From the NCBI GenBank assembly GCA_963833465.1, contig CAWHXW010000004.1, positions 310,366-374,365 of the forward strand: a DNA stretch of 64,000 nucleotides. The letters run 5' to 3'. Each line of letters starts with the position of its first letter. Within the stretch, counting starts at the first letter, position 1. Positions 1 to 22,950 of the stretch are shown here, piece by piece. Position numbers and translations under genes: made by a program. The stretch comes from Ignavibacteriota bacterium (GTDB lineage Bacteria; Bacteroidota; Ignavibacteria; UBA10030). The notes below the pieces were generated by a model. The model was given only the letters and a program-made list of their open reading frames with translations. It had not been told where the DNA came from and ran no database searches.

Positions 1-934
1 TATGGAATCCACCAACACTATCCGTGTATGTCATCAAAACGGAGTTGTTGATTATAGTTCCTGCAACCGTTCCTGCAACGATGTAAGCTGTAATCTGGAA
101 ACCAGCTCCGCGACCAGCGGGAATTGCAAGAGTCTTGAAATACACAGAATCTGGACTCGTTGCTGTGTGAGTGACAGTTCCGCCGCTATCCGCGCTTGAA
201 GCGACCCAAGTGATATTAGATGGAAGAACATCAACGATCTTTACAGTATCGGCGTTTGAAGTTCCGGTATTCAAGAATTTAATTGAATACGTGAAATTAT
301 TGCCAACTCCTGGCTGCGCATTATTCGGTGTTGCTGTTTTTGTTGCAGTACCAAATGTTGTTCTGGAAATTAGCAATGCATTTTTTTGTGTTGCAGTAGT
401 ACTAGTGAACTGAGACGGGTCAGCAGTTAAAGTTGTAGTATCTTTTGTACCGCTAACCGTTCCGTTTGTTGTGAAAATTCGGATAATAACCCAGACACTG
501 CTATCAGCTAAAGCACTATCAGTTAGAGCAATCGTGCTGGTGATTTCTCCCGGCTGTAAAATTCCGTCTCTGTTTACATCCTTATAAATCTGGACGGATC
601 CATTGAATAGCTGAGAAACTGCGCCTACATTAAATGCATCTGTGTAGTTACCATTATTTGTAATCTGCGCAGCGTATGTTACATAACTGCTATCAGCGGC
701 AACAACTGATCGTGTTGTTGGTGTAATTGTAATACCCGGTTTTTTATCTACCGTTGTTGACGTAATATTGGAAAGTACCGTATCCATCTGGGTACCTCCG
801 GCGTTTTTATAGGCCGCCTTCGCCTGGTTGGTTATAACTGTTCCATAAGGTGTGCCGGCTGCATAAGCGCTCAGAGGAATGAGCAAAATGAGCAGGCAAA
901 CAACCCCGAACAGTAAAGCAAATGAGGTTTTCAT
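1..934 (-). CDS. Secreted DUF11 (conserved repeat domain) protein, N-terminal part; gene continues beyond the left window edge
   Basis: Minus-strand reading frame is open from start codon at 932-934 to position 1. N-terminus MKTSFALLFGVVCLLILLIPLSAYA is a signal peptide. Contains DUF11-like motifs (GNNFTYSIKFLNTGTSNADTVKIVDVLPSNITWV). Not in the ORF track because no stop lies inside the window. Confidence 0.6.
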   Translation of the reverse strand, partial: MKTSFALLFGVVCLLILLIPLSAYAAGTPYGTVITNQAKAAYKNAGGTQMDTVLSNITSTTVDKKPGITITPTTRSVVAADSSYVTYAAQITNNGNYTDAFNVGAVSQLFNGSVQIYKDVNRDGILQPGEITSTIALTDSALADSSVWVIIRIFTTNGTVSGTKDTTTLTADPSQFTSTTATQKNALLISRTTFGTATKTATPNNAQPGVGNNFTYSIKFLNTGTSNADTVKIVDVLPSNITWVASSADSGGTVTHTATSPDSVYFKTLAIPAGRGAGFQITAYIVAGTVAGTIINNSVLMTYTDSVGGFH

Positions 935-1173: not shown

Positions 1174-2325
1174 TTATCGAATAACTACTTTGTATCGCAC
1201 ACATCTCTCATCTCCTGATTTTAATATTCTTTTATCGTTCCAGTTTAAACTCGTGACAACTCCTAGTGCGGGCGCTTGCGCTTCCTTTCGATTCAATGTC
1301 AGTGTCGTTCCATTGGATTCTGCACTTTCTTCAACATATTGTGCCCCTGACGGAATCTGACCAACTAATGAAATATCGGTTGCGACATCGGTACCGATGT
1401 TGTGATAATAAAGTGTATATGTTAGCGTATCGCCGGGATATGCTTTTTGTTTATCCGGCTGTGTTATTATAACTATTTCCGGTGCAGGTTTATTTGTGTT
1501 AAAGTATTTCTCCAAGCTCTTTGCTTCTTTTTCAGCATATCCACTGAAAACAATACTTGTTCCAACCACAGAAAGAGCCATTACTTCGGAACTCTTGCCT
1601 GCATCCAATGACGCTTCCTTAGATGTAATCGTAAAGGATTGTGGTTTCCCCTTCTTCAATTGTTCGACCTGAATCTGATCAACGTCTTTTACAAATACCT
1701 CAATAGCCGGATGAAGTGTTGTAAGCGGTTCAGCATTCGTTATCACAAGAGATTGTACTGTTGAACTCGCAACGCCTACTGCTATTCCAGAAAACTTTAC
1801 TTTTAGCTTCATTGGCGATTTTGGTTCAATCATAAATGCAATCATCACTTTCTTCCCGCCCGGAAGATTTTTATCTGCTTGAACAGATATCTCTCGCACC
1901 AATTTGAATTCCCCTTCCTTCACCTGACACCGGAATACAGATGTAATGGAAGTTTCTGTTGCTTTGTTTCCTTCTGCGACATTCTTCCAAGAAGCTGTTT
2001 CTTTCCCATAGTATTCGGCAAGGTTCACCTTCTTGATAACTTTGTCCGTTGCTGCATCAATGATTTCCATAATCGTGGCAGCTTCCGGCTTAGATGCATT
2101 CTCGCGGAATAGAATTCCAAATCGGCTCGTTGGATTCTTTTGAGGAACTACATCGAGTTTCCCATCAATAACTGGCACTAAAGCCGCATCGGCAGCATTT
2201 ACCAATGATGATGGAATTGTGATTGCATAACCTGTATAGTGCAGGCTGACACTGCTCGATGGTTGAGCTATAACGGATATTACTCCTGCAATTAGCAAGA
2301 ACGACATATATTGAATGTTTCGCAT
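1174..2325 (-). CDS. Secreted protein with C-terminal DUF11 repeat domain
   Basis: 383-aa ORF with N-terminal signal peptide (MRNIQYMSFLLIAGVISVIAQP). C-terminal motif GDTLTYTLYYHNIGTDVATDISLVGQIPSGAQYV is typical of DUF11. Confidence 0.6.
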   Translation of the reverse strand: MRNIQYMSFLLIAGVISVIAQPSSSVSLHYTGYAITIPSSLVNAADAALVPVIDGKLDVVPQKNPTSRFGILFRENASKPEAATIMEIIDAATDKVIKKVNLAEYYGKETASWKNVAEGNKATETSITSVFRCQVKEGEFKLVREISVQADKNLPGGKKVMIAFMIEPKSPMKLKVKFSGIAVGVASSTVQSLVITNAEPLTTLHPAIEVFVKDVDQIQVEQLKKGKPQSFTITSKEASLDAGKSSEVMALSVVGTSIVFSGYAEKEAKSLEKYFNTNKPAPEIVIITQPDKQKAYPGDTLTYTLYYHNIGTDVATDISLVGQIPSGAQYVEESAESNGTTLTLNRKEAQAPALGVVTSLNWNDKRILKSGDERCVRYKVVIR

Positions 2326-2347: not shown

Positions 2348-5300
2348 TTATTTTATAGTTACTTTAAATGTTATTGTTCCTGTTTGGCCAGGTATAATTG
2401 TTCCAACATTAATTTGTATTATACCGCCTGAATAAGTTACTTCATCGCCATCAGCTGCATCCGTTTTCGCAACGCCATTCAATGTCACTGAATTAGCGAC
2501 GTAATTTGTGTAATTCGGATTCGGATCTGTCACAGTTAGGAATGTTGCATTCGATGTTCCAATATTTTTATAGACAATCGTATATGTCAATGTATCGCCT
2601 GGTTTTGCATGCGATTTATCGACAGCTTTGGTCAGTGTCATTTGAGGTTGATTCACCGGAGTAAATGTTGCAGTAAGTTTTTGATCAACTCCATCGGCAA
2701 TAATGTGTGCCGTATTTGTTGCGGGAACACCGGTTTGAATTGATGAATCGATTCGGAGGGAATATTGCAATGACAAACTGTCGTTTACATTCAAATTAAA
2801 AACATTAAACGAGAGGACTCTTCCGTTTACCGTAGTACTGCCTGGAAGCGTGCCTGTGAGAACATCCATTCCCAATGGAATTGTATCAGTAACGGCAACA
2901 CGCGTTGACTTAACCGTTCCAGTATTCTTCACTTTAATCGTATACGCCATTGTATCTGGCGGTATTGCAGAGCCGGTATTGATACTGATATTAACGACAG
3001 ATTTTGAGGATGATGAAAATACAACAGAACCAATCTTCACCGATGCAGTAACATTAGCCGTATCACCGGTAACTGTTAGGGAATCATGATATGTTGCAAC
3101 AATTGAATCACCGGGCTGGACCGTGAAGATAGTGTCACCACTTGGTCCAGGATCTATGCCGCTGATTGTTCGAACGAGTCCAGTGAAAACTCCAGAATTA
3201 ATTCCAGTTTCCGTAAACTTTATTGTTTCCTTTTCACTGCTTGAATTCTTGAGTAATAGATAATAGACTTCTGTTTTAGTAGGATCTTTGTTCAAATCAG
3301 CATCTGTAAGCGTGAAGGTGCTAGTGTCGGTGGCAGCCATAAAAACCGGATTCGCACTAATCGTTCCATTATGCCCGCCTGTGACTGTAGTCGATAGTCT
3401 CAGCGTTGCTCCAGGGCCGCCGTTCGCCGCTAATGTGTCTACATAAGTAAGACATATTGCATCACTTGCTTGAGCTGTTAAGGTTACATTCTTTCCATTG
3501 CTGCCTTTTGTTGTACCAAATTTTGTCGGTATTGTTGCTGTGAAGATTCCTGTATTGACTCCGGTCTCTGTAAACAATACTGTATCGATTTGTCCATTCG
3601 AACTCGTGTCTCGTAAGGAGTATGTCTCTGCAACTGTTGCATTCTTGTTTAAATCCTGATCGGTTAATGTGTCTATTATAGAGGCACCGGGTATTATCGA
3701 TATCGTTCCACTCATTGTAGCAGTATGTCCACCTATGACATTTGTAGATAATCGTAACGTTGAACCAGGGCCGCCGTTCGTTGCTAATGTGTCTACATAA
3801 GTAAGACATATTGCATCACTTGCTTGAGCTGTTAAGGTTACATTCTTTCCATTGCTGCCTTTTGTTGTACCAAAGGTTGTCGGTATCGTGGCTGTGAAGA
3901 TTCCTGTATTGACTCCGGTCTCTGTAAACAATACTGTATCTATCTGTCCATTTGAACTCGTGTCTCGTAAGGAGTATGTCTCTGCAACTGTCGCATTCTT
4001 GTTTAAATCTTGATCGGTTAATGTGTCTATTATAGATGCACCTGGTAAGATCGATGCCGTCCCTTTCAGAATAGCAGTATGTCCGCCAACAACAGCCGTC
4101 TTTATGACCATTGTTGAACCCGGACCGCCGTTCGATGCTAACGTGTCTTTATATGTTAGATATATTGTATCATTAGCTTGAGTATTAAAAGTTACATTCT
4201 TTCCATTACTGCCTTTTGTTGTGCCAAAGGTAGTCGGTATTGAAGCTGTGAAGATTCCAGTGTTGACTCCGGTCTCCGTAAACAATACAGTATCTATTTG
4301 TCCATTCGAACTCGTATCTCGCAGGAAGTATGTCTCTGCAACTGTTGCATTCTTATTTAAATCTTGATCGGTTAATGTGTCTATTATAGAGGCGCCTGGT
4401 AAGATCGATGCCGTCCCTTTCAGAATAGCAGTATGTCCGCCAACAACAGCCGTCTTCAAAACAATTGTTGAACCCGGACCGCCGTTCGATGCTAACGTGT
4501 CTTTATATGTTAGATATATTGTATCATTAGCTTGAACGTTAAAAGTTACATTCTTTCCATTACTGCCTTTTGTTGTGCCAAAGGTCGTAGGTATTGTGGC
4601 TGTGAAGATTCCCGTGTTAATTCCGGTCTCTGTAAACAACACAGTATCTATTTGTCCATTCGAACTTGTGTCTCGCAGGAAGTATGTCTCTGCAACAGTT
4701 GCATTCTTGTTTAAATCTTGATCGGTTAATGTATCTATTATTGAGGCACCGGGTATGATTGATGCCGTTCCACTTAGATTTGCAGTATGCCCGCCAATAA
4801 CAGCGGTCTTTGCAATAATAGTTGCACTGCCACCATTGGCTTTTACTGAATCGAGATATGATATAACAATTGTATCATTAGCTTGAGCATTAAAAGTTAC
4901 ATTCTTTCCATTACTGCCTTTTGTCGTACCAAAGGTTGTCGGTATTGTAGCTGTGAAGATTCCTGTGTTAACTCCGGTCTCTGTAAACAATACGGTATCT
5001 ATTTGTCCATTTGAGCTTGTATCTCGTAAGAAGTACGTCTCTGCAGCGGTAGCATTCTTGTTTAAATCTTGATCGGTTAATGTATCTATTATAGATGCAC
5101 CGGGTAAGATTGATGCCGTTCCGCTTAGTGTTGCAGTATGTCCACCAACAACAGCCGTCTTCAAAACTTTTGTTGTACCCGAACCACCGTTCGATGCTAA
5201 TGTATCTTTATAAGTAAGATATAAAGTATCACCAGCTTGAGCATTAAAAGTTACATTCTTTCCATTACTGCCTTTTGTTGTGCCAAAGGTTGTCGGTATT

Positions 5301-8300
5301 GTAGCTGTGAAGATTCCTGTCTTTATTCCGGTCTCGGTAAACAACACAGTATCAATTTGTCCATTCGAACTCGTATCTCGTAGGAAATATGTCTCTATTC
5401 TGGTTGTATCTTTGTTTAAATCCTGATCAATCAGTGTATCTATTATAGAGGCGCCGGGTAAGATCGATAGCGTTCCAGTCAGTGTTGCAGTGTTTCCTCC
5501 AATAACAGGCGTCTTCAAAACTTTTGTTGTACCCGAACCACCGTTCGATGCTAATGTATCTTTATAAGTAAGATATAAAGTATCACCAGCTTGAGCATTA
5601 AAAGTTACATTCTTTCCATTACTGCCTTTTGTTGTGCCAAAGGTTGTCGGTATTGTAGCTGTGAAGATTCCTGTCTTTATTCCGGTCTCGGTAAACAACA
5701 CAGTATCAATTTGTCCATTCGAACTCGTATCTCGTAGGAAATATGTCTCTATTCTGGTTGTATCTTTGTTTAAATCCTGATCAATCAGTGTATCTATTAT
5801 AGAGGCGCCGGGTAAGATCGATGTCGTTCCACTTAGATTTGCTGTATGTCCGCCGATAACAGCCGTCTTTGCAATAATAGTTGCACTTCCGCCATTGCCT
5901 TGTAATGAATCAAGGTATGATATAACAATTGTATCATTAGCTTGAGTATTAAACGTTACATTCTTTCCATTGCTGCCTTTTGTTGTGCCAAATGTTGTCG
6001 GTATCGTGGCGGTGAAGATTCCTGTCTTTATTCCGGTCTCGGTAAACAATACAGTATCTATTTGTCCATTCGAACTAGTATCTCGCAGGAAATATGTTTC
6101 TACTCTGGTTGTATCTTTATTTAAATCCTGATCAATTAACGTATCAATCATTGATACGCCGGGCAAAATAGACGGAGTGGCAGTTAATGATGCTGTGTGT
6201 CCACCTTTAAAAGTCGTTATTGCAGTGTCCGTTAAGCCAGGTGCGCCATCATAAGTGACAGTATCGTGATAGAAAACTAATAATGTATCTCCGACTTTTG
6301 CATTTATAATTCCATCATTGTTTGTGCCGCCAGACTTCCCATATTGAGTTTGAATTGTTCCGATGAAAACACTATCATTAAAACTTCGTTCAGTGACGGT
6401 GACAGAGTCACTTTCATTTGTCGCCTTATTATAGATATAAACCTTGTAGCTCTCTTTTGAAGAAGAATTACGATTCAAGTCATAATCTGTCACAAAGATA
6501 GTATCATTGTTTCCGGGATAAATACTTACGAGTGCGGAATCTCTTCCCCAATTAGCGCCAAGAACTTTTGTTATTGCGCTCTTCCATGTTCCCGATCCCC
6601 CGTTGAGTTGCATTGTATCCTTATATCCGACCCGCAAAGTATCGTTTTGATGGACATAGATATAACCAATGTTATCTGCACCGGCAATATATCCATAGCG
6701 TGTGTTCAAGTTTCCGATGAAAACGCTATCGTCTTTACTGCGCTTGGTTACTGTGATATCTTGATATTCCTTATTTACAATATTCGAATCCCGAACTGTA
6801 TAGCTTTGTATATTGTTTGTATCACTATTTAAATCATTGTCAGTAAGAGTTACTTGAACCGTATTCAATGGATAAATCTGCGAAGTCGCAGAGATCGAAG
6901 CAGTTGATCCGTATCGAACGAACGTCTTCGCATAGATCCATCCGCCATTCATCCCTGAACTGTTTACAGTATCCAAATATTTAATAATGATTGAATCACC
7001 TGCCTGAGCATTAAAGGTTACATTCTTTCCATTGCTGCCTTTTGTTGTGCCAAAGGTCGTCGGGTACTGTAGCAGTGAAGATTCCTGTGTTGATTCCGGT
7101 CTCTGTGAACAATACTGTATCTATTTGTCCATTTGAACTCGTGTCTCGCAAGAAATATGTCTCTATTGCCGCCGGATTGTAATTCAAATCTACATCTGTT
7201 AGAGTGTCGGAAATTGTGCCTCCGGGTTTAATAGATCGTGTAGCAGTAAGTGTTGCCGTATGTCCGCCGGTAACAATTGTCATCCAGGTTTTAAGCCGAT
7301 TCACACCTGCTCCGGTTGAATCGTTTACATCTGTATAAGAAATGCGAAGGGTATCGTTTGGTTTTACATTAAAGATATTATCGTTGTTTAACCCAGCGCT
7401 TGCGCCATAGATTGTTGCAATTTTACCAGTAAAAATTCCGGTGTTGACACCTGTTTCCGTTAATGTGATATTTTCATGTTCCTTCGTGACTATATTCGAG
7501 TCGGTTAATGTGACGGTCTGCTTGGTAGTTGTAACTGTATTGAGATCTTCATCAACCAATGTATAATAGACAGTATCACTTGGTATAATCGTGCTCGTGC
7601 CGTAGAGATGACCTGTTGCGTACTGATAAACAGTTAACGAAACAGATCCCGAACCTTTATATCTTTGAGCATTCGTATCTCGTGCTGTATTAGTAATGGT
7701 AGTACCATATGGAGTACTAATTTTGATCTTTGCTTTGAAGTTTAAAGTATCGATGGCTCCTGGTGCTAATGTTCCAACACTCCAGGTAATATATTGCGTG
7801 GTTGTTCCTGTCAATGTACCGGTACCTACTAATGCCACCGAAGTCGTATCGTAGGATGGAAGAGTGTCGCAAACCCATGTTAATGTAGATGCGCTATATG
7901 GAGAAATATTTTTAACGATAAGGTGATATTGCACTGTATCGCCCGCTTTTGACATTCCCGGGTCAAAATATTTCGTAATCGTTACAATGGGCGGAGGGAT
8001 TGCCGTATCTTTTACAGATTGGTTAACACCCGGTGCACTGACATTCGCTCTATTGATAAAAAGTGTATCTGTTGTGAATCTGGAACCGGGAATAACCCAG
8101 TATCGCACTGAATCGCTGACTCCCTGGATAAGTGATGTAAAGACATTCGTCCAAGTAAGTATAAATCCAACCGAGGAATCTCGGGTCGCGGTTGGTGCCG
8201 TACCTGGAGCGCCTGTTACATATTGAAATCCTTTTGGAAGTGAGTCAACGACTGTAATAGGATTCGCATGAGCAACTGATACATCCCAGTTGCCAGAATT

Positions 8301-9743
8301 TTTCACGCGGATTGTATAATGCAGCGTATCAGGAATAGGAGTATTGTATTTCGGGTAACCCTTATAATCTAAAAACGTTTTTGTTGTCTGCAAAAATACA
8401 GGTGTTACAACTTTAATGGATTTTGTTGCTGTATTATTATATAGGCGTCTATCGAACTGTTGGCTGGAATCAGATGCACTGTTCCGTAGTGTTGGATAAC
8501 TTGCAGGATCGTAATAGACATATACTGTTATATCAATAGTTGGAATTGTTACGTTGGGATAATTAATTCCGGGATATGTGAATCTTAGAATTGGGTTCCT
8601 AGAAGAATCTACGGTCCAACCTGATGCTGAGACTGAAACAAGTTTTGCACCCGGCTGAAGTGTGTCAATAACCCATATAGCTCCAGTTGGATCGGGACCA
8701 TTATTCGACGCCGTTAAATAATAATGCATCTGGTTGGCGACAATAATGCTGTCGCCTTTAGAGTCAAGAGAACATGTGTCGGTGATAGCGATATCGGAAT
8801 TTGAAGTGTCGGAGACAGATATAATTTCAGCATTCAGCACAACGTTATCTGCACCTGACGAGTAAACTGTAGTAGCAGTTGTATCACCCGGTGTAAGTAA
8901 GCTGGTAACAGGATACGTGTCGATATCCGTACCGTATGTAAATAAATAACCTTTGATCGGGACGAGAGTATTACTTACGGAATTGAATTGATTGCCAATA
9001 GGATTGTAGAAATCCGACAAACTCTGCCCATTAAATGCAAGGTCTTCAGAATAACCATTGGCTGGATCAGAATTTGCTAAATCACCCTCCCATGTTATGT
9101 CGGTAATCTTTCCGTCAACAGTGCCAAATGGTACATAGAAATTATTCGGTTTAAGAGTAATTTCATCTCCTTTAAACGTCTGCAATCCATCATAAATATT
9201 TATGGTATGTCTTATTTCAGGCGAACCTCCGTAGATAACGACTACCGCCCACCCTGCCACTACTGACGCAGTATTAACATAAATTGCAGTTGTATTATCT
9301 ACTCTTAAGCCGGTAAATATATAGCTGCCACTTTTATACTGTTTGACAATCGAAGTGACATCCGCAAATCCGCTAAAATAATATCGATTGCTTGTGTTAT
9401 AACTCGATACAGTATCCATTGGCAATGAACCGATAACGGTAGTTCCATGCAATGATACTGTGTCATCTGGAGTTGAACCGGATCCACACCAATAGAGATA
9501 TGCTGCAGTAACGGTGTCTCCACTTGGAATTGTGAGGCCACATGTATCTGAAGTTTTTAAAGCAGCAATAGAATCTGTTCTTAATGATCCGCCCATCATT
9601 ACATAGCTCATATTGCCGGAAAAGCTAGTGCGCCAGTTAATGGGCGTCTGAGCGTAAATTCTGCTGCCTATCGACAGAATTATTATTGCTAAGAATAATA
9701 TTCGAAAAGGAATCAGTGTGATATTTTTTTGTTGTGAGTACAA
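2348..9743 (-). CDS. Giant secreted adhesin-like protein (~2460 aa) with DUF11 domains and >=10 tandem 118-aa repeats; split into two ORFs (7011..9743 and 2348..6976) by a 1-nt frameshift near 7061-7067
   Basis: The upstream ORF's C-terminus (…TETGINTGIFTATVP) reads directly into the repeat consensus (…TTFGTTKGSNGKNVTFNAQA) once one base is removed from gtaCCCgac at 7061-7067. Signal peptide after a TTG start at 9743. DUF11 motifs occur at both ends (e.g. GDTLTYTIVYKNIGTSNATFLTVTDPNPNYTNYV). Confidence 0.7.
3390..7320. repeat. Tandem array of 354-bp coding repeats (118-aa unit, at least 10-11 copies), some adjacent copies >300 bp identical
   Basis: Copies at 5161-5514 and 5515-5868 are identical over ~310 nt; copies at 3411 and 3771 are also near-identical. 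Unit: ILPGASIIDTLxDQDLNKxxTxxETYFLRDTSSNGQIDTVLFTETGxNTGIFTATIPTTFGTTKGSNGKNVTF…. Confidence 0.85.
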
Positions 9744-9804
9744 TTTCCTTTGTCCGTTAATTAGATTCTTTTTAGTATAAATTAATCAGACGGTAATTTT
9801 TTTA

Positions 9805-10149
9805 TCATTTGTTTAAAGTATTTTTGAGTTCATAGAAATAATCTTTCAATACAAACTTTTCAGCGCCAATAGATTTTGCCTCTTTCTGAATTTCAGGATC
9901 AGACATTTGTGTCATTATGACAACGTGAGCTTCTGGAAATTTGGCTTTCAATTTTTTTGTCGCCGTCAATCCGTCTATTTTCTTCATCTCGACATCCATT
10001 ATGACCAAGTCTGGTTTGTACTTTTTGTATGCCGCCATGACATCTTTCCCGTCTGTACACTCATAGATTTCATCGTAGTACCCCTTGAGCATACTGATCA
10101 TCATTCGCCGAAATTGTTTGCTGTCTTCAACAATTAGCAATCGTTTCAT
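9805..10149 (-). CDS. Stand-alone response-regulator receiver (CheY-like REC) protein
   Basis: 114 aa; N-terminus LLIVEDS; contains DLVIMDVEMKKIDGL and a conserved Lys region. No output domain. Confidence 0.75.
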   Translation of the reverse strand: MKRLLIVEDSKQFRRMMISMLKGYYDEIYECTDGKDVMAAYKKYKPDLVIMDVEMKKIDGLTATKKLKAKFPEAHVVIMTQMSDPEIQKEAKSIGAEKFVLKDYFYELKNTLNK

Positions 10150-10368
10150 AAATCACCTCTTAAAAAGTATAGTCTAATGCCAATAAAAGGTCTCGAAATT
10201 CGCAAAGAAACTAAATAGTGACTTGCACACAGATGAAGAATTGTACACACCTATTTTTATAGGTGTTTCCACTTATTTATGAAAATTTATTTTTTAGGTA
10301 GTGCTTAGATGGGCAAAAGTGGTTTTTGCGTTTGTATCAAACAAATGCAAATAAAATACTGTATTTAA

Positions 10369-11037
10369 TTACAACGAAGATCTGTTTTCAATCGCAAACT
10401 TAAGAAGGGCATGGCTCCCATGAATTTCGAGTTTTTCACAAATATTGGACCGATGATTTTCTACAGTGCGAAAGCTAATCTTTAACACGTCTCCAATTTC
10501 TTTGCTCGTTTTATTTTCCGAAATCATGCGCAGAACTTTACGTTCTGTTTTTGTAAGATTTTCTAACTGTGGTTTCTTTTTCAAAAGCAATCTTGCACGG
10601 TCGCTTCTGTTCACCAGATGTTCAGAGATTGAAGGGCTGAGAAAATAACGCCCTTCAGATACAGTTTTGATACTGTTCACAACATCGGTCACTGCACTTT
10701 CTTTTAACACGTATCCTTTCACACCAAGATCCATCACTTCATTGAACATATCTTCTTCTTTGTACATCGTGAGAAAAACAATATCAACTGGAAGATGACG
10801 TTTGATAATTTCTTCGGCTACCTGAAGGCCGTTCATGCCGGGCATTTCGATATCCAAAACGATGATGTCCGGTTTTAATTCTTCAGCCAATTGGAGAGCT
10901 TGATTTCCATCTGCAGCTTCACCGGCTATTTCGATGGAACCTTCATTGCCAATTGCCTGAATGAGACCTTTCCGAAATATTGGATGATCATCCGCGATGA
11001 GAACTCGTAGTTTCGTCAGTGCTATCTGTTTTTTCAT
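10369..11037 (-). CDS. NarL/FixJ-family response regulator (REC + LuxR-type HTH)
   Basis: Contains RVLIADDHPIFRKGL…DIIVLDIEMPGMNGL, plus a C-terminal LTKTERKVLRMISENKTSKEIGDVLKISFRTVENHRSNICEKL helix-turn-helix. Confidence 0.85.
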   Translation of the reverse strand: MKKQIALTKLRVLIADDHPIFRKGLIQAIGNEGSIEIAGEAADGNQALQLAEELKPDIIVLDIEMPGMNGLQVAEEIIKRHLPVDIVFLTMYKEEDMFNEVMDLGVKGYVLKESAVTDVVNSIKTVSEGRYFLSPSISEHLVNRSDRARLLLKKKPQLENLTKTERKVLRMISENKTSKEIGDVLKISFRTVENHRSNICEKLEIHGSHALLKFAIENRSSL

Positions 11038-14000
11038 GAGTTTTTATTGTTATAAGAATTCGTGTTCCATGACCGGGAACAGATTCGATCTGTACAATTC
11101 CTCCGAGCACACGTGCTCGTTCTTTTAAACCTTGCAATCCTAATCCTTGAGTATCTTCAATTTTTATTGATGAACCTTCGAATCCTGTTCCATTATCTTC
11201 AATAGTAATATTGAATCGGTCATGCCATTCCTTGATTAAGACGCGTGCTGTTGTCGCATTTGCATGTTTAAGAATGTTATTAATGCACTCTTGGACAATT
11301 CTGTACACATGAATTTCCATTTCTTTCGCAAGTACATTATCGATCATACCAATATCCGCAGTAAACTTAATCGAAGAAGTACTCGATGCTCGATTAATAA
11401 TAGATTCTATGGCTCGGCGCAAACCGAGCCGATCAATTTGATACGGACGAAGATTGTACGCAATTTCTCGAGTTTCTTGAATTGCTTGCGATGCAGTACT
11501 GGATATTTCATCCAGTTGCTCGCGAATATTTTTCTTGTTCTTAAGATCACTCAATGCGAGCAATGCTCGATTTTTAATAATCAGGAGTTCTTGTCCAATA
11601 CTGTCATGCAATTCCGCGGCGATTCTTTTCCGATCAGCTTCAGCCAAATCGAGCAATCGATGCGTGAATGAATGCTGCTCATCAAGCAATCGTCTGCGCC
11701 GGCGCTCCTGTTGATAATAAACGGCATAAGCGATAAGGATAATACAACTAATTACTGCGATGCGAAAGTCACCATGTCTCCCACATCGCCGGATGCACAA
11801 TAAGCTTGACTGATGCACCTTGCATATTCCATATTCCGTCATTGTTGGCGGCAATAACATGGAAAATATATTCTCCTGATGACAAATTTGTAAAGTAAGC
11901 CACTCGGCGCTGTCGTACATCTACCCACTCTCCGTGCAAGCCTTCAAGCCAAAATTTAAATTGTGTGTGTCGTGGATTTGTAAAATTCAATGCAGAGTAA
12001 TGAATTTCTATCTGTTGTCTCCGGCCATAAGGAATTTCAATAGGTGATGTCAGCGGATACTCGGTTTGATTAACGAGAACATGTTCGATATGAACGGGCG
12101 GAACACCTGTGTTGATTTTCATTTTTTCAGGATCGATAATCGCCAATCCTTTGATGGTTGGAAAAAGTAATTTGCCATCTCTCGTTTTCCATGCTGCAGG
12201 TTGAAATCCGCCATTGGTTTCATCGGTAGGCATTCCACTCTCGGTGCCATAGGCAATACTTGTAATCGAAGGAATCTTTCCGTCAGCAAATTCATTGAGC
12301 TGTTTTCGGCTGACACGATAGATTCCCCTGTTGCAGCTCATCCATAAATTTTGTTTTTCATCTTCAAGGATAGCTGAGACAACATTATCATAGAGTCCTT
12401 CTTGCATTGAGTACCGTGTAAATGTTCCATCTTTCAATCGATTGAGGCCGCCGCCATATGTTCCAATCCAGAGGACACTATCTGCATCTTCATAAATCGA
12501 ACGAACATAATTATGGGAAAGTCCGTTGGAAGTTGTATAAACGGTTATTTTTCCGTTTTCGTATTTATTCAATCCATCGAGTGTGCCAATCCACATTGCG
12601 CCTGAATGATCCTGAAGAAATGTTCTTACACTCGAATTTGACAAGCCATCCTTAACAGTGATCGAGTGAAACGCACCATCCTTATAGAAGGTCACGCCGC
12701 CGCGATCGGTTCCCATCCATACGACACCGTCGCGATCACAATATAATGACAGTACAGTATTATCCGCCAGCCCATCGTCCGTTGAATAATTTTTCATTAT
12801 CCCATTTTTATAACGCCAAACACCGCCGCCATAACTTCCTGCCCAGAGAGCACCAGTCGCATCTTCTGTGATCGACCAAATACTTTCTGGCCGAAACCCA
12901 TCTTTCTCTGTAAACTGATAGAGTGATTTGCCAGACATCCGGTACAATCCGCCATCATTGGTTCCGATCCAGATATTATTTTTCGAATCTTGATAGACCG
13001 CCTCAACAATCTGATGATGGAGACCTTCTTTGGTGCCGACAACATCAATAAGTTTATCTTTTATTCGGATAAGGCCTTCGCCGTCTGTTCCGATCCAGCG
13101 ATTTCCTTCACAGTCAATAAAACAAGTTTGGATTTTTGATGCCTTCATTCCATCTGGAAGATGCAGGCGAGAGAATTTCTTCGCAGGTTTCAATTTTCCA
13201 AAACTCACTCCGCCTATCAACCCTCCTACCCAATATGTGCTATCAAGGTCTCTTGTCATTGTAGTTACAAAGTAATCTGAAAGACCGTTGGCTCCGGTAA
13301 CCGATTCTTTTTTCCCACTAGATTCATGAAGCAACCCAAATGAATTACGGAACCATTCAGTGCCATCCGTGTCTTCAAATAAGAATGCAGGAACCCGGTG
13401 CAATTTTCGATCGATATTTAAGATGGTGTCAATTTTTCCGTTCATTACTCGATAGGCGGCACTATCAGCATTCAACCAAAGGGCGCCGCTTTTTGTTCGG
13501 TGAATAGATCGAAGAGGTCCTCTAATAACATTCTCAATATTTTGCAGCGGATAAAATTTTCCATTTTTGAAACATTGAACGCCGGCTCGAGTCCCAATCC
13601 ATAGAGCGGTATCAGAATCCTCATAAATTGTTAACACAAATTCATCTTTCAGTCCCTCGTGAATTCCATAATTGACAAATGATCCATTAGTATACTTTGC
13701 AAACCCTCCCCCTTCAGTGCCAATCCATATTCCTCCATCAAACGATTCGCAGAGAGAGAGAATACGATCCGATCGAAGTCCTTTGGATATACCTCCAAGC
13801 TGTGTAAATGTGATCCCATCAAATCGCACTAACCCGCCATAAGTGCCAATCCAAAGATATCCATCGTGAGTTTGTATAATAGCATTCGCTGAATTCTGCG
13901 GAAGTCCTTCTGATGTCGTCCAAACATTGATCACATATTGACTATGAAGTGAAACTGGAAATATCACAAGTGCAAGAATAACGAATAAGGATACAATATT

Positions 14001-14042
14001 AAATTTAAAATGAATAATACTCTCCTTATATATCGGTCGCAA
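10988..14042 (-). CDS. Sensor histidine kinase with periplasmic two-component-regulator beta-propeller repeats + Y_Y_Y domain, TM helix, HisKA_3 and HATPase_c; interrupted by a frameshift near 11768-11785 (ORFs 11769..14042 and 10988..11920)
   Basis: The 757-aa ORF has repeated GLPQN/WIGT beta-propeller motifs and ends …HPAMWETW. The TM helix (FRIAVISCIILIAYAVYY) and kinase core (ELHDSIGQ…, HATPase GxGxG) follow in the +1 frame. This architecture is normally one polypeptide. Start codon is TTG. Confidence 0.7.
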
Positions 14043-15080: not shown

Positions 15081-15689
15081 TTATTTCTTATGTGAAATCC
15101 CTCTTACTTCAAATAAACGTTCTATATATTTACCAAGAACATCAAATTCAAGGTTGACAGTCATTCCCGGCTTGAGCAATTTAAAAGTCGTCACTTCCAT
15201 CGTATGAGGAATAATAGAGACAGCGAAAGAATTGTTCTTCACTTTTGCCATTGTCAAACTTACACCATTGACAGCGATGGAACCGACAGGCACAAGGTAA
15301 TGTGCGAATTTCTTCGGTACTCGAATCCAGAAAATCCAACTGCTTTCACGGAATTCCAGCCCTGTTACTTTACCAAGCCAATCTACATGACCCAGAACGA
15401 AATGCCCGCCCAGACGGTCTGACGGCAATAACGGCATTTCTAAGTTCACGAGATTGCCTGCCCGTAATCTGCCAAGTGTTGTCTTTTTCAATGTCTCTTC
15501 CACCGCTTGCACGTCAAATATTTTTGAAGTCCTTTTAATTACCGTTAAACAGACTCCTTCTACTGCAATACTTTGATCAACACGTAAAGTCTTGATTGTC
15601 TTTCTTCCTTGAATAGTGAAGATAACACTTCCACTTTTTTGTTTGATTGATTTGACAATTCCAGTTTCTTCAACTAAGCCAGTGAACAT
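15081..15689 (-). CDS. ribE: Riboflavin synthase alpha subunit
   Basis: MFTGLVEETG… N-terminus with duplicated lumazine-binding repeats (GVCLTV…, NGVSLTM…). Start chosen at the internal Met, which abuts the ribD stop. Confidence 0.85.
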   Translation of the reverse strand: MFTGLVEETGIVKSIKQKSGSVIFTIQGRKTIKTLRVDQSIAVEGVCLTVIKRTSKIFDVQAVEETLKKTTLGRLRAGNLVNLEMPLLPSDRLGGHFVLGHVDWLGKVTGLEFRESSWIFWIRVPKKFAHYLVPVGSIAVNGVSLTMAKVKNNSFAVSIIPHTMEVTTFKLLKPGMTVNLEFDVLGKYIERLFEVRGISHKK

Positions 15690-15699
15690 ATTTTTTCTT

Positions 15700-16806
15700 T
15701 CATTTATAAATAAACTTCGCTTCAACGAGAACATCTCCTCCAACATGCGAGATTTTAGTCAACTTCAAATTTATCGGTCTATGAAGCAATCTCGGGGTTT
15801 CAAAACAAAAACTATTCAATCCGCCTCCAAAAATCTTGGGTGCGGTAAACAGATGAATCTTATCGGCAAGAGACTGACTGACGAACCCATCCACAGTGCT
15901 AGTACCTCCTTCTATTAAAACAGAAGAAATACCTTCAGATGCAAGTGTTCGTAGTATTGATTTTGTATTTATATTATAAGCTGATGAAATTGGAAACACT
16001 CGTACACCAAGTGAAATAAGCTTATGTACTTTTTGAATATTTGCTTTCACAGCTTTTACAGATGTCAGCAGCCATGTTGATGCAAAAGTTGTATTGAATA
16101 TTGAACGAGATGTCGGAAGCGAAAGATGTCCATCAACTACAACACGCACAGGATTTCTTCCCTTAACAAGCCGAACAGTCAACTCTGGATTATCATGAAG
16201 AACAGTTTTCGCCCCGACTAAAATCGAATCATATTCACTGCGCAAGCGATGAACTTCTTTGCGAGCAGTTTTGGATGTAATCCATTTTGATTTTCCAGCA
16301 ATATCGGCAATTCTGCCATCGAGTGTTTGTGCAAGTTTGATACCGACAAAAGGCATACCTGTTTTCATGAACTTGAAGAATTTTTCATTCAGCAATTCTG
16401 CTTCTTTCTGAAGCAACCCGATATTAACATGAATACCTGCCTTGCGCAATAGCTTTACACCTTTTCCACTCACAAGAGGATTCGGATCCATTGATGCGAC
16501 TAACACGCGAGAAATTCCGGCTTGAATGATTGCATCTGCACAAGGCGGCGTCTTCCCAAAATGCACACATGGCTCTAAAGTGACATACAATATCGCACCA
16601 TTAGTTTTTTTTCCAGCATGTTTCAGGGCATGAATTTCAGCATGCGGTCCGCCAAATGCTTTATGGTATCCTTCTCCCACAATTTTGCCGTCTCGTACTA
16701 TTATGCAGCCTACCATCGGATTAGGATTGACCTTACCTTCACCCTTTCTTGCCAGTTTAAGACAGCGCTGCATAAATATTTTATCACCGAATGTTTTCAC
16801 CGCCAA
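15700..16806 (-). CDS. ribD: Bifunctional riboflavin biosynthesis deaminase/reductase RibD
   Basis: CMP/dCMP deaminase zinc motif (HAEIHAL…PCVHFGKTPPC) followed by a RibD reductase C-domain. Confidence 0.85.
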   Translation of the reverse strand: MAVKTFGDKIFMQRCLKLARKGEGKVNPNPMVGCIIVRDGKIVGEGYHKAFGGPHAEIHALKHAGKKTNGAILYVTLEPCVHFGKTPPCADAIIQAGISRVLVASMDPNPLVSGKGVKLLRKAGIHVNIGLLQKEAELLNEKFFKFMKTGMPFVGIKLAQTLDGRIADIAGKSKWITSKTARKEVHRLRSEYDSILVGAKTVLHDNPELTVRLVKGRNPVRVVVDGHLSLPTSRSIFNTTFASTWLLTSVKAVKANIQKVHKLISLGVRVFPISSAYNINTKSILRTLASEGISSVLIEGGTSTVDGFVSQSLADKIHLFTAPKIFGGGLNSFCFETPRLLHRPINLKLTKISHVGGDVLVEAKFIYK

Positions 16807-17639
16807 TATACCTTCACATTTGAATCTAATGATGCTCTCAGAAGACGTCCAGCACTATTTTTTTTTGCTGAAATTTCAACAAGACCGCTGCTGCCTACAA
16901 TTCGACATGGAGTATTTTCTGGAGCTTCATCATAAAAACGAATCCACTTGCTTACCATATTACTGCCTATCGATACCGCTTGAATCTCCTTCATGCTTTT
17001 TTCTACTTCAAAAGATCGAAGGTTAGTAATGATGTTGCCATAAGTATCAATATGCAGGACACACACCGACACTACGTCCCTCCGAGAGCTTATAAAAGGA
17101 GAAATAATTTCAGGAAGCTTATAAGGTGTACCAAATTGTCTGAATGGTAAATTGATCGATATATATGCAGCGAGCGGTGCAATCAGATCGCGTCCATGAA
17201 ATGTCGATGATATATTTCCTAATGCAAATTTTTGAAGAGATAATTGTGTCACCTCAACCGCTGTACCTACTTTTTCTTGATGTTGAACAAAATTCATCAA
17301 TCCGTTATCGGGAGCAATAAATATATATTTCTTCGTTTTCATCACGATAATCCGTCTTTTGCTGCCGACACCAGGATCAACTACATTTACAAAAATTGTA
17401 TCTTCTGGAAAATAATTATACACAGACCAAAGTATATACGCAGCTTGACGAACCCTAAAAGGTTGAATTCCGTGAGTAATATCTATAATTTTTATCGATG
17501 AATTGATAGACAACATCACTCCTTTCATCGACGCTGTGTATTGATCTTGTAACCCAAAATCAGTCAGGAGTGCGATTATTCTTGGGGATTCTTTACCTTT
17601 TGGATAATGTTGTGCAGCTTGATTTTTCGATATAGCCAT
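16797..17639 (-). CDS. S-adenosyl-L-methionine hydroxide adenosyltransferase family protein (DUF62; fluorinase/chlorinase-like fold)
   Basis: N-terminal IALLTDFGLQDQYTASMKGVM signature. Length ~280 aa, typical of the SAM hydrolase family. Confidence 0.6.
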   Translation of the reverse strand: MAISKNQAAQHYPKGKESPRIIALLTDFGLQDQYTASMKGVMLSINSSIKIIDITHGIQPFRVRQAAYILWSVYNYFPEDTIFVNVVDPGVGSKRRIIVMKTKKYIFIAPDNGLMNFVQHQEKVGTAVEVTQLSLQKFALGNISSTFHGRDLIAPLAAYISINLPFRQFGTPYKLPEIISPFISSRRDVVSVCVLHIDTYGNIITNLRSFEVEKSMKEIQAVSIGSNMVSKWIRFYDEAPENTPCRIVGSSGLVEISAKKNSAGRLLRASLDSNVKVYWR

Positions 17640-17657
17640 CTATGTACTTACAAAACA

Positions 17658-18665
17658 TTACTTTATTGTAACAGCTTTGCCGCGCTTGGCAGATTTGTAA
17701 ATTAAATCTAAAATTTTCATTCTTTGCACAGCTTCATCGCCATTAGAAATAATCGAATGCAGTCCGCGCAATGCTCCAACCCAATGCTTGAGTTCATTCT
17801 CGTATGATTTACGATACAGGCTTTGCGGCGTCTCAATCGATGCAGGTGCAACATTGATTAGATTATCATGCATACGTTTAATTATGCGAAAGGGATTTAG
17901 CGAACCGCTTCCATCCGTACCAAAACAATCGCAGTAAAAAAAGTCTGATGTTGATTCAAATGACCAGCTGGCTTCAATTGTTAATATAGAGCCGTTCTTC
18001 ATTTTGAGGTATGCTATCGAAGAATCCTCTACATCTTTTGTATGGTGCGAATAATTTGTTGCAGACACCTCTTGCACCTCAGGAAATCCCATCATCCAGA
18101 AAGCGAGATCGAGCATAACGATACCAAGGTCTAATACAACACCGCCCCCGGATTGAGTTTTTTTGGTCGACCATGCGCTCTCTGCATTCAATTTTTTGAA
18201 CCATCCTGCCTTAGCATAAAAAAGTTTGCCAAGCGCTTTATCTTCAATAAAACTTTTAAGAATCATTGCATCCGGGCGGAATCTATTGTTCATGCCCACC
18301 ATTAGTATCTTATGATATTTTTTTGCTGCCGTAGTAATCTCTTCTGCTTCCGCCGATGTTCGTGCTAAAGGTTTTTCTACGAGAATATTATTCTTCTCTT
18401 CTAGTGCTGCAATAGCCATGTCTTTGTGCAATATTGTCGGAGTACAGATATCAATTCCATCAAGATCTTGTTCGATCGTTAGCATTTTTTCAAAACTGTT
18501 ATAGTAACGCCGCACTTTAAATTTATCTGCTACAAATTGCGCTTTTGCCCTATCCACATCACAAACCGCTACAATTTCGGCATCCGTGAATTTACTGAGG
18601 ATCGGAAGATGAAATGTCTGAGTTATGGAGCCAAGTCCAACTATACCTATACGTGCTTTTTCCAT
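17658..18665 (-). CDS. Gfo/Idh/MocA-family NAD(P)-dependent oxidoreductase
   Basis: N-terminal Rossmann motif IGIVGLGSITQTFHLP, an EKPLA motif, and a C-terminal alpha/beta domain. Confidence 0.75.
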   Translation of the reverse strand: MEKARIGIVGLGSITQTFHLPILSKFTDAEIVAVCDVDRAKAQFVADKFKVRRYYNSFEKMLTIEQDLDGIDICTPTILHKDMAIAALEEKNNILVEKPLARTSAEAEEITTAAKKYHKILMVGMNNRFRPDAMILKSFIEDKALGKLFYAKAGWFKKLNAESAWSTKKTQSGGGVVLDLGIVMLDLAFWMMGFPEVQEVSATNYSHHTKDVEDSSIAYLKMKNGSILTIEASWSFESTSDFFYCDCFGTDGSGSLNPFRIIKRMHDNLINVAPASIETPQSLYRKSYENELKHWVGALRGLHSIISNGDEAVQRMKILDLIYKSAKRGKAVTIK

Positions 18666-18684
18666 ACAATATCCAGAATGATAA

Positions 18685-20619
18685 TTAAATATTTTGTAAC
18701 GCGGAACTTCCGCGGGTGATTGTTAAATAATTTTTCGCTACTTCTGAAATTCCATCGGCATCAAGCTTGACGATCCGGCTTAGCTCTTCAGAAGAACCAT
18801 GTTCGATGAATTCATCCGGCAACCCATGCACTTTGACAGAGACATCGGAAATGCCCAAATGACCGAGTGCTTCCAAAACTGCAGTTCCGAAACCGCCATG
18901 AATAACATTATCTTCAATAGTAATAAATATTTTAATTCGCCGGGCTAATGAATCTAACAATTCTTCATCAATCGGTTTTGCAAATCTCATATTCACAACT
19001 TCTGCTTCAATGCCTTCATTGCTCAACAAGTCTGCAGCTTTGAGCGCATTCACTACTGTTTTACCTATTGCGAGCAGAGCAATATCTTTGCCTGTACGTA
19101 ATGTTTCAGCTTTGCCTATTTCCAACTTCTGAAATCCATCCCTGACAGGTACACCAAGCGTATAATCCCTAGGATAACGTAAAGCTATAGGACCTTTCTT
19201 AAATTCAACTGCAGTATAAAGCATATCGCGTAATTCCTGTTCATCCTTCGGAGCCATTATAACGATACCAGGAATACATCGCAGAAAAGAAAAATCTAAT
19301 GCACCATGATGTGTAGGTCCATCAGCTCCGACTAATCCTCCGCGATCCATCGCTAAAACGATATGTAATTTTTGAATCGCACTGTCGTGCACCACCTGAT
19401 CGAAAGCACGCTGCATAAATGTAGAATAAATTGCAACGACCGGAATATAACCTTCCGTTGCCATACCTGCCGCAAAAGTAACTGCATGCGGTTCGGCAAT
19501 ACCGACATCATAAAAACGTTCAGGCATTTCTTCGTGAAGCTGAATTAAGCCGGTTCCATCTGACATTGCAGCGGTAATACCGACAACTTTTGTGTTCTGT
19601 TTGCAAATTTCTACTAGAGCTTTGCCAAAGACATCCGTGTAAGCCGGTTGTCGGCTGTTCTCATTTGCAGAGATGCCCGTAATTTTATCGAATGGTGTCA
19701 CTCCATGCAAACGTGTCACTTCTCGCTCTGCAGGCGCGTATCCTTTTCCTTTTTGAGTAATTACATGAATGAGAATAGGACCGTTTAAATCTTTGACTTG
19801 CCTGAATATCTCGACTAATTTTACGACATTATGCCCATTGATCGGGCCAAAGTACCGAAAACCAAGCGCTTCAAAAAGCATGCCCGGTGTAACTACTGCC
19901 TTAATTCCTTTTTCCATTTGCTGGGCAACCGTTCTAAGCCGATCGCCAAATGAATCTAATTTTCCAGTTAGGTCCCACACATTTGCTTTAAATTTGTTAT
20001 AAGCGGGATGCGTAAGTATCTTTGTAAAATAATTGTGGATTGACCAAACACTCGGCTGGCGTGATGAGAGAGAACCCATTTGATTATCATTTAGAATAAC
20101 AACAATATTTTTTTTCAACATACCAGCATGGTTCATCGCTTCGTAAGCCATACCGCCTGTCATAGATCCATCACCGACAATCGCTACAACCTTAAAATTT
20201 TTCTTTTCTAAATCTCGAGCTGCCGCGATACCAAGTGCCGCCGAAATTGCGGTGCTCGCGTGCCCTGCGCCGAATGTATCGAATTCGCTTTCCGAACGTT
20301 TTAGAAATCCGCTTAATCCGCCTAACTTGCGGATTGTTTCCATTCTGTTTTTTCGTCCGGTTAGAATTTTATGAGGATATGCTTGATGTCCAACATCCCA
20401 AACAAGTTTATCTTCAGGCGTATTAAAAACATAATGAAGCGCCACAGTAAGTTCTACAGCCCCGAGTCCTGCTCCAAAATGACCGCCTGTTTTCGAAACA
20501 CAATCGATCAAATATTCTCGCACTTCAGCACAGATTGCACGGAGATCATGAATATTTATCTTTCGCAAATCTTTTGGAAAATCAATTGAATTAAGAAATT
20601 GAAAATTTATATCGCTCAT
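18685..20619 (-). CDS. dxs: 1-deoxy-D-xylulose-5-phosphate synthase
   Basis: 644 aa. Contains GGHFGAGLGAVELTVALHYVF…DVGHQAYPHKILTGR and a thiamine-diphosphate binding region. Confidence 0.9.
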   Translation of the reverse strand: MSDINFQFLNSIDFPKDLRKINIHDLRAICAEVREYLIDCVSKTGGHFGAGLGAVELTVALHYVFNTPEDKLVWDVGHQAYPHKILTGRKNRMETIRKLGGLSGFLKRSESEFDTFGAGHASTAISAALGIAAARDLEKKNFKVVAIVGDGSMTGGMAYEAMNHAGMLKKNIVVILNDNQMGSLSSRQPSVWSIHNYFTKILTHPAYNKFKANVWDLTGKLDSFGDRLRTVAQQMEKGIKAVVTPGMLFEALGFRYFGPINGHNVVKLVEIFRQVKDLNGPILIHVITQKGKGYAPAEREVTRLHGVTPFDKITGISANENSRQPAYTDVFGKALVEICKQNTKVVGITAAMSDGTGLIQLHEEMPERFYDVGIAEPHAVTFAAGMATEGYIPVVAIYSTFMQRAFDQVVHDSAIQKLHIVLAMDRGGLVGADGPTHHGALDFSFLRCIPGIVIMAPKDEQELRDMLYTAVEFKKGPIALRYPRDYTLGVPVRDGFQKLEIGKAETLRTGKDIALLAIGKTVVNALKAADLLSNEGIEAEVVNMRFAKPIDEELLDSLARRIKIFITIEDNVIHGGFGTAVLEALGHLGISDVSVKVHGLPDEFIEHGSSEELSRIVKLDADGISEVAKNYLTITRGSSALQNI

Positions 20620-20855: not shown

Positions 20856-20857
20856 AA

Positions 20858-22921: not shown

Positions 22922-22950
22922 ACGTAAAAACAGAAAGGCATTAGAAATAC

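Follow-up and report, generated by a model that had tools for sequence, protein, structure and literature searches.

A predicted giant surface protein of an Ignavibacteriota bacterium with a repeat stalk of S-layer-type Ig-like units and CLIPPER (DUF11) domains

Giant surface proteins that carry Ig-like repeats in tandem are common. Among those described, NmSLP (Nmar_1547), the surface layer (S-layer) protein of the archaeon Nitrosopumilus maritimus, is structurally characterized (PDB 8C8K/8C8L/8C8M) (von Kugelgen et al. 2024, PMC11153153), while the anammox bacterium Kuenenia stuttgartiensis has been reported to produce the S-layer glycoprotein Kustd1514 (family model NF052345; PMC5088730, PMC7709395). 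A further point of comparison is provided by fibrillar adhesins, the stalks of which typically harbor DUF11, a CnaA-like isopeptide-bonded domain that has been renamed CLIPPER and that, in some members, contains an intramolecular Lys-Asn isopeptide bond with a catalytic Asp (PMC12617251). Here, we describe a giant gene on the minus strand of a 64,000-nucleotide stretch of an Ignavibacteriota genome (assembly GCA_963833465.1, contig CAWHXW010000004.1, positions 310,366 to 374,365; hereafter, the window), the product of which is a predicted repeat-stalk surface protein of a known kind with an S-layer Ig-type module.

The gene is represented by two adjoining minus-strand open reading frames (ORFs), 7011..9743 (910 aa) and 2348..6976 (1542 aa), which together constitute a single gene that starts with TTG, is preceded by AAGGA 4 nt upstream, and terminates with a stop codon at positions 2348 to 2350. 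Deletion of one C yields a product of 2,464 aa, in agreement with the approximately 2,460 aa proposed in a first-pass annotation of this DNA; the present analysis confirms the observation made there in part and likewise supports its interpretation in part. The protein comprises, in order, a signal peptide, an N-terminal beta-sandwich, three DUF11/CLIPPER domains, 13 repeat units, and two more DUF11 domains (Table 1), its stalk amounting to 18 tandem beta-sandwich domains. The signal peptide, the richness in Thr and Ser, and the DUF11 motifs noted in that annotation were all recovered. By inspection, the N-terminus reads as a Sec-type signal peptide (MYSQQKNITLIPFRILFLAIIILSIGSRIYA, followed by QTP), the AQTP junction of which, with predicted cleavage after the Ala, is conserved among orthologs. 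The composition is 17% Thr, 8% Ser, 6.7% Asp, and 4.4% Lys, with a pI of about 5. Five DUF11 domains (PF01345) score well above the Pfam cutoff of 24.6 bits, with 91.7 bits for three stretches in the N-terminal part and 63.1 bits for two in the C-terminal part, and TIGR01451 matches with 57.4 and 71.7 bits (cutoff, 24). Alignment of the internal DUF11 domain at residues 586 to 706 places ITK, CDTLP, and ITNTA at the putative isopeptide positions. The N-terminal domain has no Pfam match, even at an E value of ≤10; modeled as a jelly-roll beta-sandwich resembling carbohydrate-binding modules, it is the candidate ligand-binding head. The suggestion that the protein is a cargo of the type IX secretion system (T9SS) was not borne out, as no T9SS C-terminal domain (TIGR04183, TIGR04131, or Por_Secre_tail) was found in the last 343 aa (NCBIfam, E ≤ 0.1) or the last 110 aa (Pfam, E ≤ 10), these searches returning DUF11-type families only. 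Neither an RTX signal nor a retention module was found in the protein.

The identity of the repeat unit emerged from structural and profile comparisons. An AlphaFold2 (AF2) model of two units, built from 26 sequences, has a predicted local distance difference test (pLDDT) score of 94 and consists of two beta-sandwiches, each with seven to eight strands. When this model was compared to the PDB with Foldseek, NmSLP was the top match (E value of 3.9e-13), generic Ig folds following at 1.5e-5 or weaker. A profile of 26 two-unit segments likewise retrieved NmSLP as the sole PDB sequence (E value of 5.3e-12), with the DxDLN and ETGxxTGxF motifs aligned; a single-sequence search of the PDB with the repeat region found nothing, and a profile search was needed. 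Three stretches of the repeat region also match, in part, the Kustd1514 family model (NF052345) with 88.6 bits (E value of 1.8e-25), against a curated cutoff of 1400, the best stretch covering only model positions ~978 to 1152. The earlier view that the unit is not assignable to a named family thus holds for Pfam, where no family matched even at E ≤ 10, but not for its homology to the Ig-like domains of NmSLP and its partial match to NF052345, by which the refutation foreseen in that annotation, a match of the unit to a well-characterized domain, is realized in part. Similarly, the Ig-like beta-sandwich predicted for the unit was confirmed, whereas the proposed Cna-B likeness fits the flanking CnaA-like DUF11/CLIPPER domains (PMC12617251) rather than the unit. 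An exhaustive profile search for the unit returned 3,655 cluster representatives (50% identity) at E ≤ 1e-3, 412 of them at E ≤ 1e-30, with family members reaching 7,799 aa and dozens of units. In short, the repeat unit is an Ig-like module of wide distribution that no Pfam model covers and that is structurally known from one S-layer protein.

The 13 consecutive units (R1 to R13) share the motifs DxDLN and ETGxNTGxF, and the Thr-rich core of the unit reads PTTFGTTKGSNGKN. The count exceeds the minimum of 10 copies of 118 aa given in the first-pass annotation, although the unit sequence quoted there is carried only by the eight consecutive units R5 to R12 and by the core of R2; R1, R3, R4, and R13 are 41 to 53% identical at the DNA level to units of the quoted type. 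The 354-bp tandem array was recovered by TRF at positions 3411 to 6145 (7.7 copies, 86% matches, score of 3247). It had further been described as highly homogenized, with several adjacent copies identical over more than 300 bp, and neither statement could be upheld. Only the R6/R7 pair shares an identical tract of more than 100 bp, namely one of 313 bp, the next longest being 92, 72, 62, and 50 bp. Adjacent units other than R6/R7 are 76 to 91% identical and differ by 19 to 42 synonymous codons per 118 codons, and the synonymous divergence (dS) is 0.3 to 1.5 in all pairs but R6/R7, for which it is 0.05. The array therefore does not display the near-identical DNA and very low synonymous divergence across most copies that would define concerted evolution. 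In a core of 51 codons (ETYFLRDTSSNGQIDTVLFTETGxxTGIFTATIPTTFGTTKGSNGKNVTFN), the nonsynonymous divergence (dN) is 0 to 0.06 at a dS of 0.25 to 0.9, and this core retains 78% identity in P0001, an ortholog that is 49% identical overall. Since the core is almost invariant while most units differ by a dS of 0.3 to 1.5, its uniformity points to purifying selection rather than to recent copying or homogenization. Only R6/R7 looks like a recent duplication or conversion, the other units being old duplicates, and the anticipated instability of copy number and its undercounting in assemblies rest mainly on that one tract. R2 is a mosaic, the central ~150 nt of which are 80 to 96% identical to R5 to R12 between flanks of 30 to 60% identity, and the C-terminal tail (GGWIY) corresponds to unit 2 of the orthologs, a pattern consistent with a gene conversion tract derived from the array.

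Comparison to orthologs places these differences in an evolutionary frame. R1, R3, R4, and R13 are positional orthologs of units 1, 3, 4, and the last unit, to which they are 51 to 59% identical, as opposed to 32 to 39% to their own neighbors, whereas R5 to R12 are 81 to 95% identical to each other and 63 to 74% identical to units of the same subtype in P0001, the nearest ortholog. This combination of positional orthology and within-array clustering therefore indicates lineage-specific expansion at one position, together with at least one conversion into R2. The nearest relatives at the locus are found among Ignavibacteriota and Bacteroidota metagenome-assembled genomes (MAGs), the best-matching locus among GTDB species representatives being 55% identical. 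Orthologs harbor 1, 2, 3, 4, 6, 7, or 8 units, with the overall count in relatives running from 1 up to at least 19. One ortholog, P0132 (locus L015, positions 8785 to 13998), carries a 351-bp array of 14.9 copies that belongs to a different unit subtype and shows 80% DNA matches; stalk expansion is recurrent and independent. The units of the P0132 array appear by eye to be nearly identical in protein sequence, the same pattern of selection without homogenization as in the window array. Stalk length is proposed to change through gain or loss of whole units at a single site, which lies between the last unit and positional unit 4 and at which the source genome has expanded one unit subtype to eight copies. 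Most of these copies are old, with their 51-residue core held nearly invariant by purifying selection, while the core of R2 was probably overwritten by sequence of the array type.

Table 1. Features of the giant gene and its surroundings, in window coordinates
Feature	Position	Strand	Remarks
Giant surface protein gene	2348..9743	-	2,464 aa after one base removed
Signal peptide, aa 1-31	9651..9743	-	By inspection; predicted cleavage between IYA and QTP
N-terminal beta-sandwich domain, aa 32-335	8739..9650	-	Related to DUF3344-bearing proteins
Three DUF11/CLIPPER (CnaA-like) domains, aa ~340-706	7626..8726	-	Pfam PF01345 and TIGR01451
Thirteen Ig-like tandem units, R1-R13, aa 707-2240	3023..7625	-	117-119 aa each
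Unit R2	6914..7268	-	Chimera; contains frameshift; array-type core, unit-2-type tail GGWIY
CCC run with one extra C	7062..7064	-	+1 frameshift in unit R2
Units R5-R12	3377..6205	-	Eight similar units, 70-97% DNA identity
R6/R7 identical tract	5156..5822	-	313 bp; 5822-5510 versus 5468-5156
Fourth DUF11/DUF7619 domain, aa 2241-2362	2657..3022	-	Complete; TNTAHI Asn strand
Terminal DUF11/CLIPPER domain, aa 2363-2464	2351..2656	-	Truncated, profile positions 3-84 of 114; ends GTITFKVTIK
Secreted 383-aa protein	1174..2325	-	22 nt downstream of giant gene; truncated DUF11 end RYKVVIR
Third secreted DUF11 protein	1..934	-	Runs off left window edge; begins AGTPYGTVITNQAKAAYKNAGGTQMDTVLSNITSTTV after signal peptide
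REC-only response regulator	9805-10149	-	
LuxR-type response regulator	10369-11037	-	
Reg_prop/Y_Y_Y/HisKA_3 sensor kinase	10988-14042	-	Split by extra T at 11771

The giant gene is part of a conserved, operon-like arrangement, which is shared by the window and by loci L004 and L065 (Ignavibacteriota MAGs). In these, genes for a sensor kinase, a LuxR-type response regulator, and a REC-only response regulator precede that of the giant protein, which is followed by those for a DUF11 protein of 357 to 383 aa, one of ~590 aa, and one of more than 1,000 aa. The first of the downstream products, the 383-aa protein of the window, matches DUF11 in part (profile positions 2 to 60) and has orthologs of 357 to 372 aa in L004, L065, L006, and L011. 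Its terminal DUF11 domain (1174 to 1470) has Thr in place of the putative isopeptide Lys of the giant and ~590-aa proteins. Some neighbors carry an N-terminal extension (Nte), by which we refer to the segment A-x-G-T-P-x-G-T-x-I-x-N-x-A-x-V-x-Y located directly after the signal peptide; the 383-aa protein has neither this extension nor a recognizable N-terminal domain. A scan for promoters and terminators gave a promoter count within the range of shuffled sequence and no interpretable site, and the only hits of Rfam and tRNA scans of the window were three tRNAs, all unrelated to the giant gene.

With its signal peptide and long tandem-repeat stalk, the protein resembles members of the fibrillar-adhesin class, from which it departs in that the polypeptide contains no recognized anchor or sorting domain and ends instead in a truncated DUF11 domain. 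It is probably a giant Sec-exported cell surface protein of fibrillar-adhesin-like build with a stalk of variable length. The N-terminal beta-sandwich would act as the binding head, and the stalk, composed of three CLIPPER/DUF11, 13 Ig-like, and two DUF11 domains, would hold this head away from the cell, such that the protein, once exported to the surface, would function in adhesion or as a spacer. The invariant Asp residues of the units, namely those of DxDLN, D91, and D99, may bind Ca2+ or another cation. Several points weigh against this assignment. The head domain is modeled with only moderate quality (pLDDT of 74) and gives fold matches of a generic kind. Pfam and NCBIfam searches revealed no OmpA, LPXTG, T9SS C-terminal domain, autotransporter, or type I secretion signal in the polypeptide. 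The repeat unit has two characterized relatives, both of them S-layer proteins and not adhesin stalks, and adhesion activity, a ligand, and surface location are properties that we infer for the giant protein.

In a narrower version of the adhesin-like reading, the giant protein would be the tip of a head-to-tail, donor-strand-complemented fiber, an idea that we put forward tentatively and from sequence-level support. A truncated DUF11 C-terminus is present in the giant protein, in the 383-aa protein, and in orthologs of the third protein, the C-terminus of the window copy lying beyond the edge. Proteins with such an end finish in F.V.I followed by Q, K, or N; among 120 relatives, a strict pattern detected this ending in 67, and most of the rest show it by eye, other phyla included. 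In a domain alignment, internal domains retain both the x-I-x-N-x-A strand, on which the isopeptide Asn is located, and the final strand, whereas the terminal domains end precisely ahead of the first of these. The terminal domains do have the Lys (LTK) and Asp (VTD), while the Asn strand is absent. The Nte, in which an Asn is invariant, occurs in the third window protein and in the third and fourth genes of L004, L006, L008, and L010. Between 36 and 38 ORFs with this extension were counted in 22 to 24 of 80 related loci from several phyla, 35 of 37 being on the strand of the tip gene. Truncated ends and neighbors with an Nte were also observed in loci such as L031, L035, L049, and L055.

The resemblance of the Nte to the missing strands was assessed in several ways. 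In hhalign, the Nte profile aligned to columns 94 to 109 of 130 in intact domains, which correspond to the Asn strand, with a P value of 4e-4 and a probability of 35% for this short match. Appended in silico to a truncated domain, the Nte extends the DUF11 match to positions 107 to 109 and adds 8 to 12 bits for DUF7619 and 4 to 8 bits for DUF7507; none of three chimera controls showed gains in score, although one of them, a reversed Nte, still extended DUF11 coverage to 105. A tail-only hidden Markov model (HMM) gave weak scores on single Nte segments (4 to 11 bits, E values of 0.07 to 10). The N-terminus of the giant protein itself was considered as an Nte and rejected, the match not being significant (P value of 0.03).

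Three classes of protein can be distinguished on this basis: head-bearing proteins with a truncated end and no clear Nte; proteins of 320 to 420 and 580 to 615 aa with both; and proteins of ~1,950 aa that start with an Nte, followed by DUF11, CarboxypepD_reg, an OmpA (PF00691) peptidoglycan-binding domain, and a long C-terminal region. The last of these may be outer membrane anchors. They were seen in Krumholzibacteriota-type loci (L049:4042-9900, L055:4075-9924, and L066 from 4030) and contain one DxDLD/ETDxxSGVF unit and a C-terminal region of ~1,000 aa without Pfam match that ends in FRFRFNQES. In the proposed assembly, the C-terminal CLIPPER domain of one subunit, being devoid of its last two strands, would receive these in trans from the Nte of the next subunit, and an intermolecular Lys-Asn isopeptide bond might seal the joint in the manner of a natural SpyTag/SpyCatcher pair. 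The chain would thereby run from the tip (truncated C-terminus, no Nte) through shaft subunits (both) to the anchor (Nte, OmpA-like domain, and long C-terminal region), an order that fits the three protein classes and their consistent polarity.

It is thus conceivable, if doubtful, that diderm bacteria of several phyla (Ignavibacteriota/Bacteroidota, Krumholzibacteriota, Myxococcota, Spirochaetota, Nitrospirota, and Gammaproteobacteria) assemble a split-CLIPPER fiber without sortase, of a previously undescribed kind; a literature search found no paper describing a head-to-tail assembly mode for DUF11. The proposal draws on the truncated domains of the giant and 383-aa proteins and the spread of this ending among relatives, on the strand bias of Nte-bearing neighbors, on the chimera gains and the hhalign P value, on the Asn that is invariant in the Nte while Lys and Asp are kept in the terminal domains, and on the candidate OmpA-bearing anchors of other phyla, and it has a precedent in archaeal threads, which combine donor-strand complementation with intermolecular isopeptide bonds (PMC9715654). 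It is weakened by the low scores of single Nte segments and the hhalign probability of only 35%, as well as by the absence, under the pattern used, of an Nte ORF from 19 of 35 loci with full flanks. Moreover, small subunits could close in cis instead of polymerizing, and a truncated domain of seven strands might not need complementation to be stable. The 383-aa protein has no Lys at the expected position of the alignment, and the fourth gene, that of the putative anchor, lies beyond the window. No chaperone or usher genes were identified near the loci, where the neighboring genes were not searched systematically for them.

The integrity of the giant gene raises a separate alternative, as the deposited sequence terminates its first ORF at positions 7011 to 7013 and the uncorrected translation loses its frame within a repeat unit. 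Deleting any single base just upstream of this first stop reopens the frame, but only a deletion inside the CCC run restores the consensus unit sequence TATVPTTFGTTKGSNGKNVTF. The same break is present in the public record, in which a 1,258,017-bp NCBI/ENA contig carries two gene calls of 910 aa (P0278) and 1534 aa (P0137). A second, independent contig, L082 (run ERR11594402; 3,344 bp), which is 99.88% identical to window positions 10370..7025, reads CC rather than CCC at this site, and all 16 orthologs inspected are encoded by a single ORF. Because L082 is without the extra C and the orthologs are intact, the frameshift is most likely a residual error of long-read assembly or polishing and probably not biological. 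L083 (ENA ERZ25039473 contig_116585), from a sibling assembly of the same population, is 99.75% identical to window positions 15250 to 23691 but shows eight single-base indels relative to it across 8.4 kb, with several gene calls fragmented, and assemblies of this population are, therefore, affected by indel noise of the long-read type. Further evidence of such noise comes from the neighboring sensor kinase gene, which is split in the window yet intact in contig L001 and in loci L004 and L065. The break, moreover, falls within R2 where this unit is 80 to 96% identical to eight other units, a stretch in which polishing reads would mis-map and polishing is least reliable. A scan of Joint Genome Institute (JGI) metagenomes for the frameshift site gave no match.

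It is accordingly rather unlikely, if still worth weighing, that the frameshift is real and that the giant gene and the adjacent sensor kinase gene have been inactivated, either as pseudogenes or through a short-homopolymer on/off switch. The extra C is, after all, found in the 1.26-Mb contig as deposited, with the gene called in two pieces, and the sensor kinase is broken as well, being divided into ORFs of 757 and 310 aa by a single-base insertion (GGAGACATGG, followed by the inserted T and GACTTT) that contig L001 does not have and that has no counterpart in orthologous loci, where it is one ORF of 1004 to 1039 aa (1004 aa in L004 and L065). Five other suspect ORF pairs elsewhere in the window proved to be separate, normal genes, so that the breaks seem concentrated at this locus. 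L082 itself carries, at its position 2546 (window position 7825), a different deletion (GG to G) that breaks the giant gene, which makes genuine loss-of-function alleles in the population possible; it also has two A-to-C differences, at window positions 7718 and 7703, and these deviations could represent sequencing noise or a second haplotype. Set against this, both breaks are single-base insertions typical of long-read consensus, three C residues make a run shorter than a classical slipped-strand switch would need, and the frame remains open for 1,554 codons past the break with dN far below dS, such that the break, if real, would be very recent. Programmed frameshifting or phase variation at the CCC run was also considered and is unlikely, given the shortness of the run and the CC of L082.

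That the giant protein is instead an S-layer protein, with an Ig-like array that tiles into a two-dimensional lattice as in NmSLP and Kustd1514, is improbable: the homology of the unit to NmSLP domains, the partial Kustd1514 match, a Thr content and pI that would fit the heavy glycosylation reported for Kustd1514 (PMC5088730), and the similarly fast divergence of S-layer genes among Kuenenia strains (PMC7709395) are countered by an NF052345 score far below the curated cutoff, an architecture with a DUF3344-like head and five CLIPPER domains, unit numbers among close orthologs that are hard to fit to a fixed lattice geometry, an adjoining two-component system and two or three further DUF11 proteins alongside, a modest charge compared to NmSLP (10.9% Asp, 1.7% Lys), and the occurrence of the unit in thousands of giant multidomain proteins. 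An adhesin-like protein is favored over an S-layer protein because of the head-plus-stalk build with CLIPPER domains, the variable unit number, the modest charge, and the conserved gene placement.

The occurrence of this unit in giant proteins of bacteria links the building blocks of S-layers and adhesin stalks. Because the core is nearly invariant among copies of substantial synonymous divergence and well conserved in an otherwise divergent ortholog, the units are more than inert spacers and may carry repeated surfaces for binding, glycosylation, or lateral contact. The split-CLIPPER hypothesis is the part of the findings worth following, for truncated CLIPPER domains with a matching Nte would, if the hypothesis is true, represent a new mode of covalent fiber assembly on diderm cells.

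Among known systems, chaperone-usher pili with their FimH tip adhesin and the Sulfolobus threads (PMC9715654) are similar in form only: each offers a parallel to a headed tip with an incomplete Ig-like C-terminal domain and no Nte, to neighboring subunits that carry an N-terminal extension, and to a consistent polarity of tip, shaft, and anchor. They differ from the locus described here in that its fold is CnaA-like, two strands rather than one are missing, and complementation and cross-linking are hypothetical. Kustd1514 shares the Thr richness of the giant protein and matches three stretches of its repeat region, but the match is confined to the repeat-like part of the 1,596-position model, and taxon and architecture differ. 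The likeness to NmSLP resides in the tDaDLN and ETGxxTGxF motifs and in the arrangement of such domains as tandem arrays on the cell surface, a location that is predicted for the giant protein. NmSLP is archaeal and strongly acidic, with ten Ig-like domains, no DUF11/DUF3344-like modules, and a hexagonal lattice, whereas the giant protein is bacterial and mildly acidic, possesses a head and CLIPPER domains, and varies widely in unit number among orthologs. With respect to CLIPPER/DUF11 fibrillar adhesins, the stalk consists mostly of NmSLP-type units rather than CLIPPER or cadherin-like repeats, no OmpA-like anchor is present, and the last CLIPPER domain is truncated at position 84 of 114. It is with one of these adhesins, B9T28_05395 of Acinetobacter silvestris (PDB 9IFR) (Costa et al. 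2025, PMC12617251), that the giant protein has its overall plan in common, namely, a signal peptide followed by a putative binding domain at the N-terminus and a long stalk of tandem Ig-like domains, DUF11 among them.

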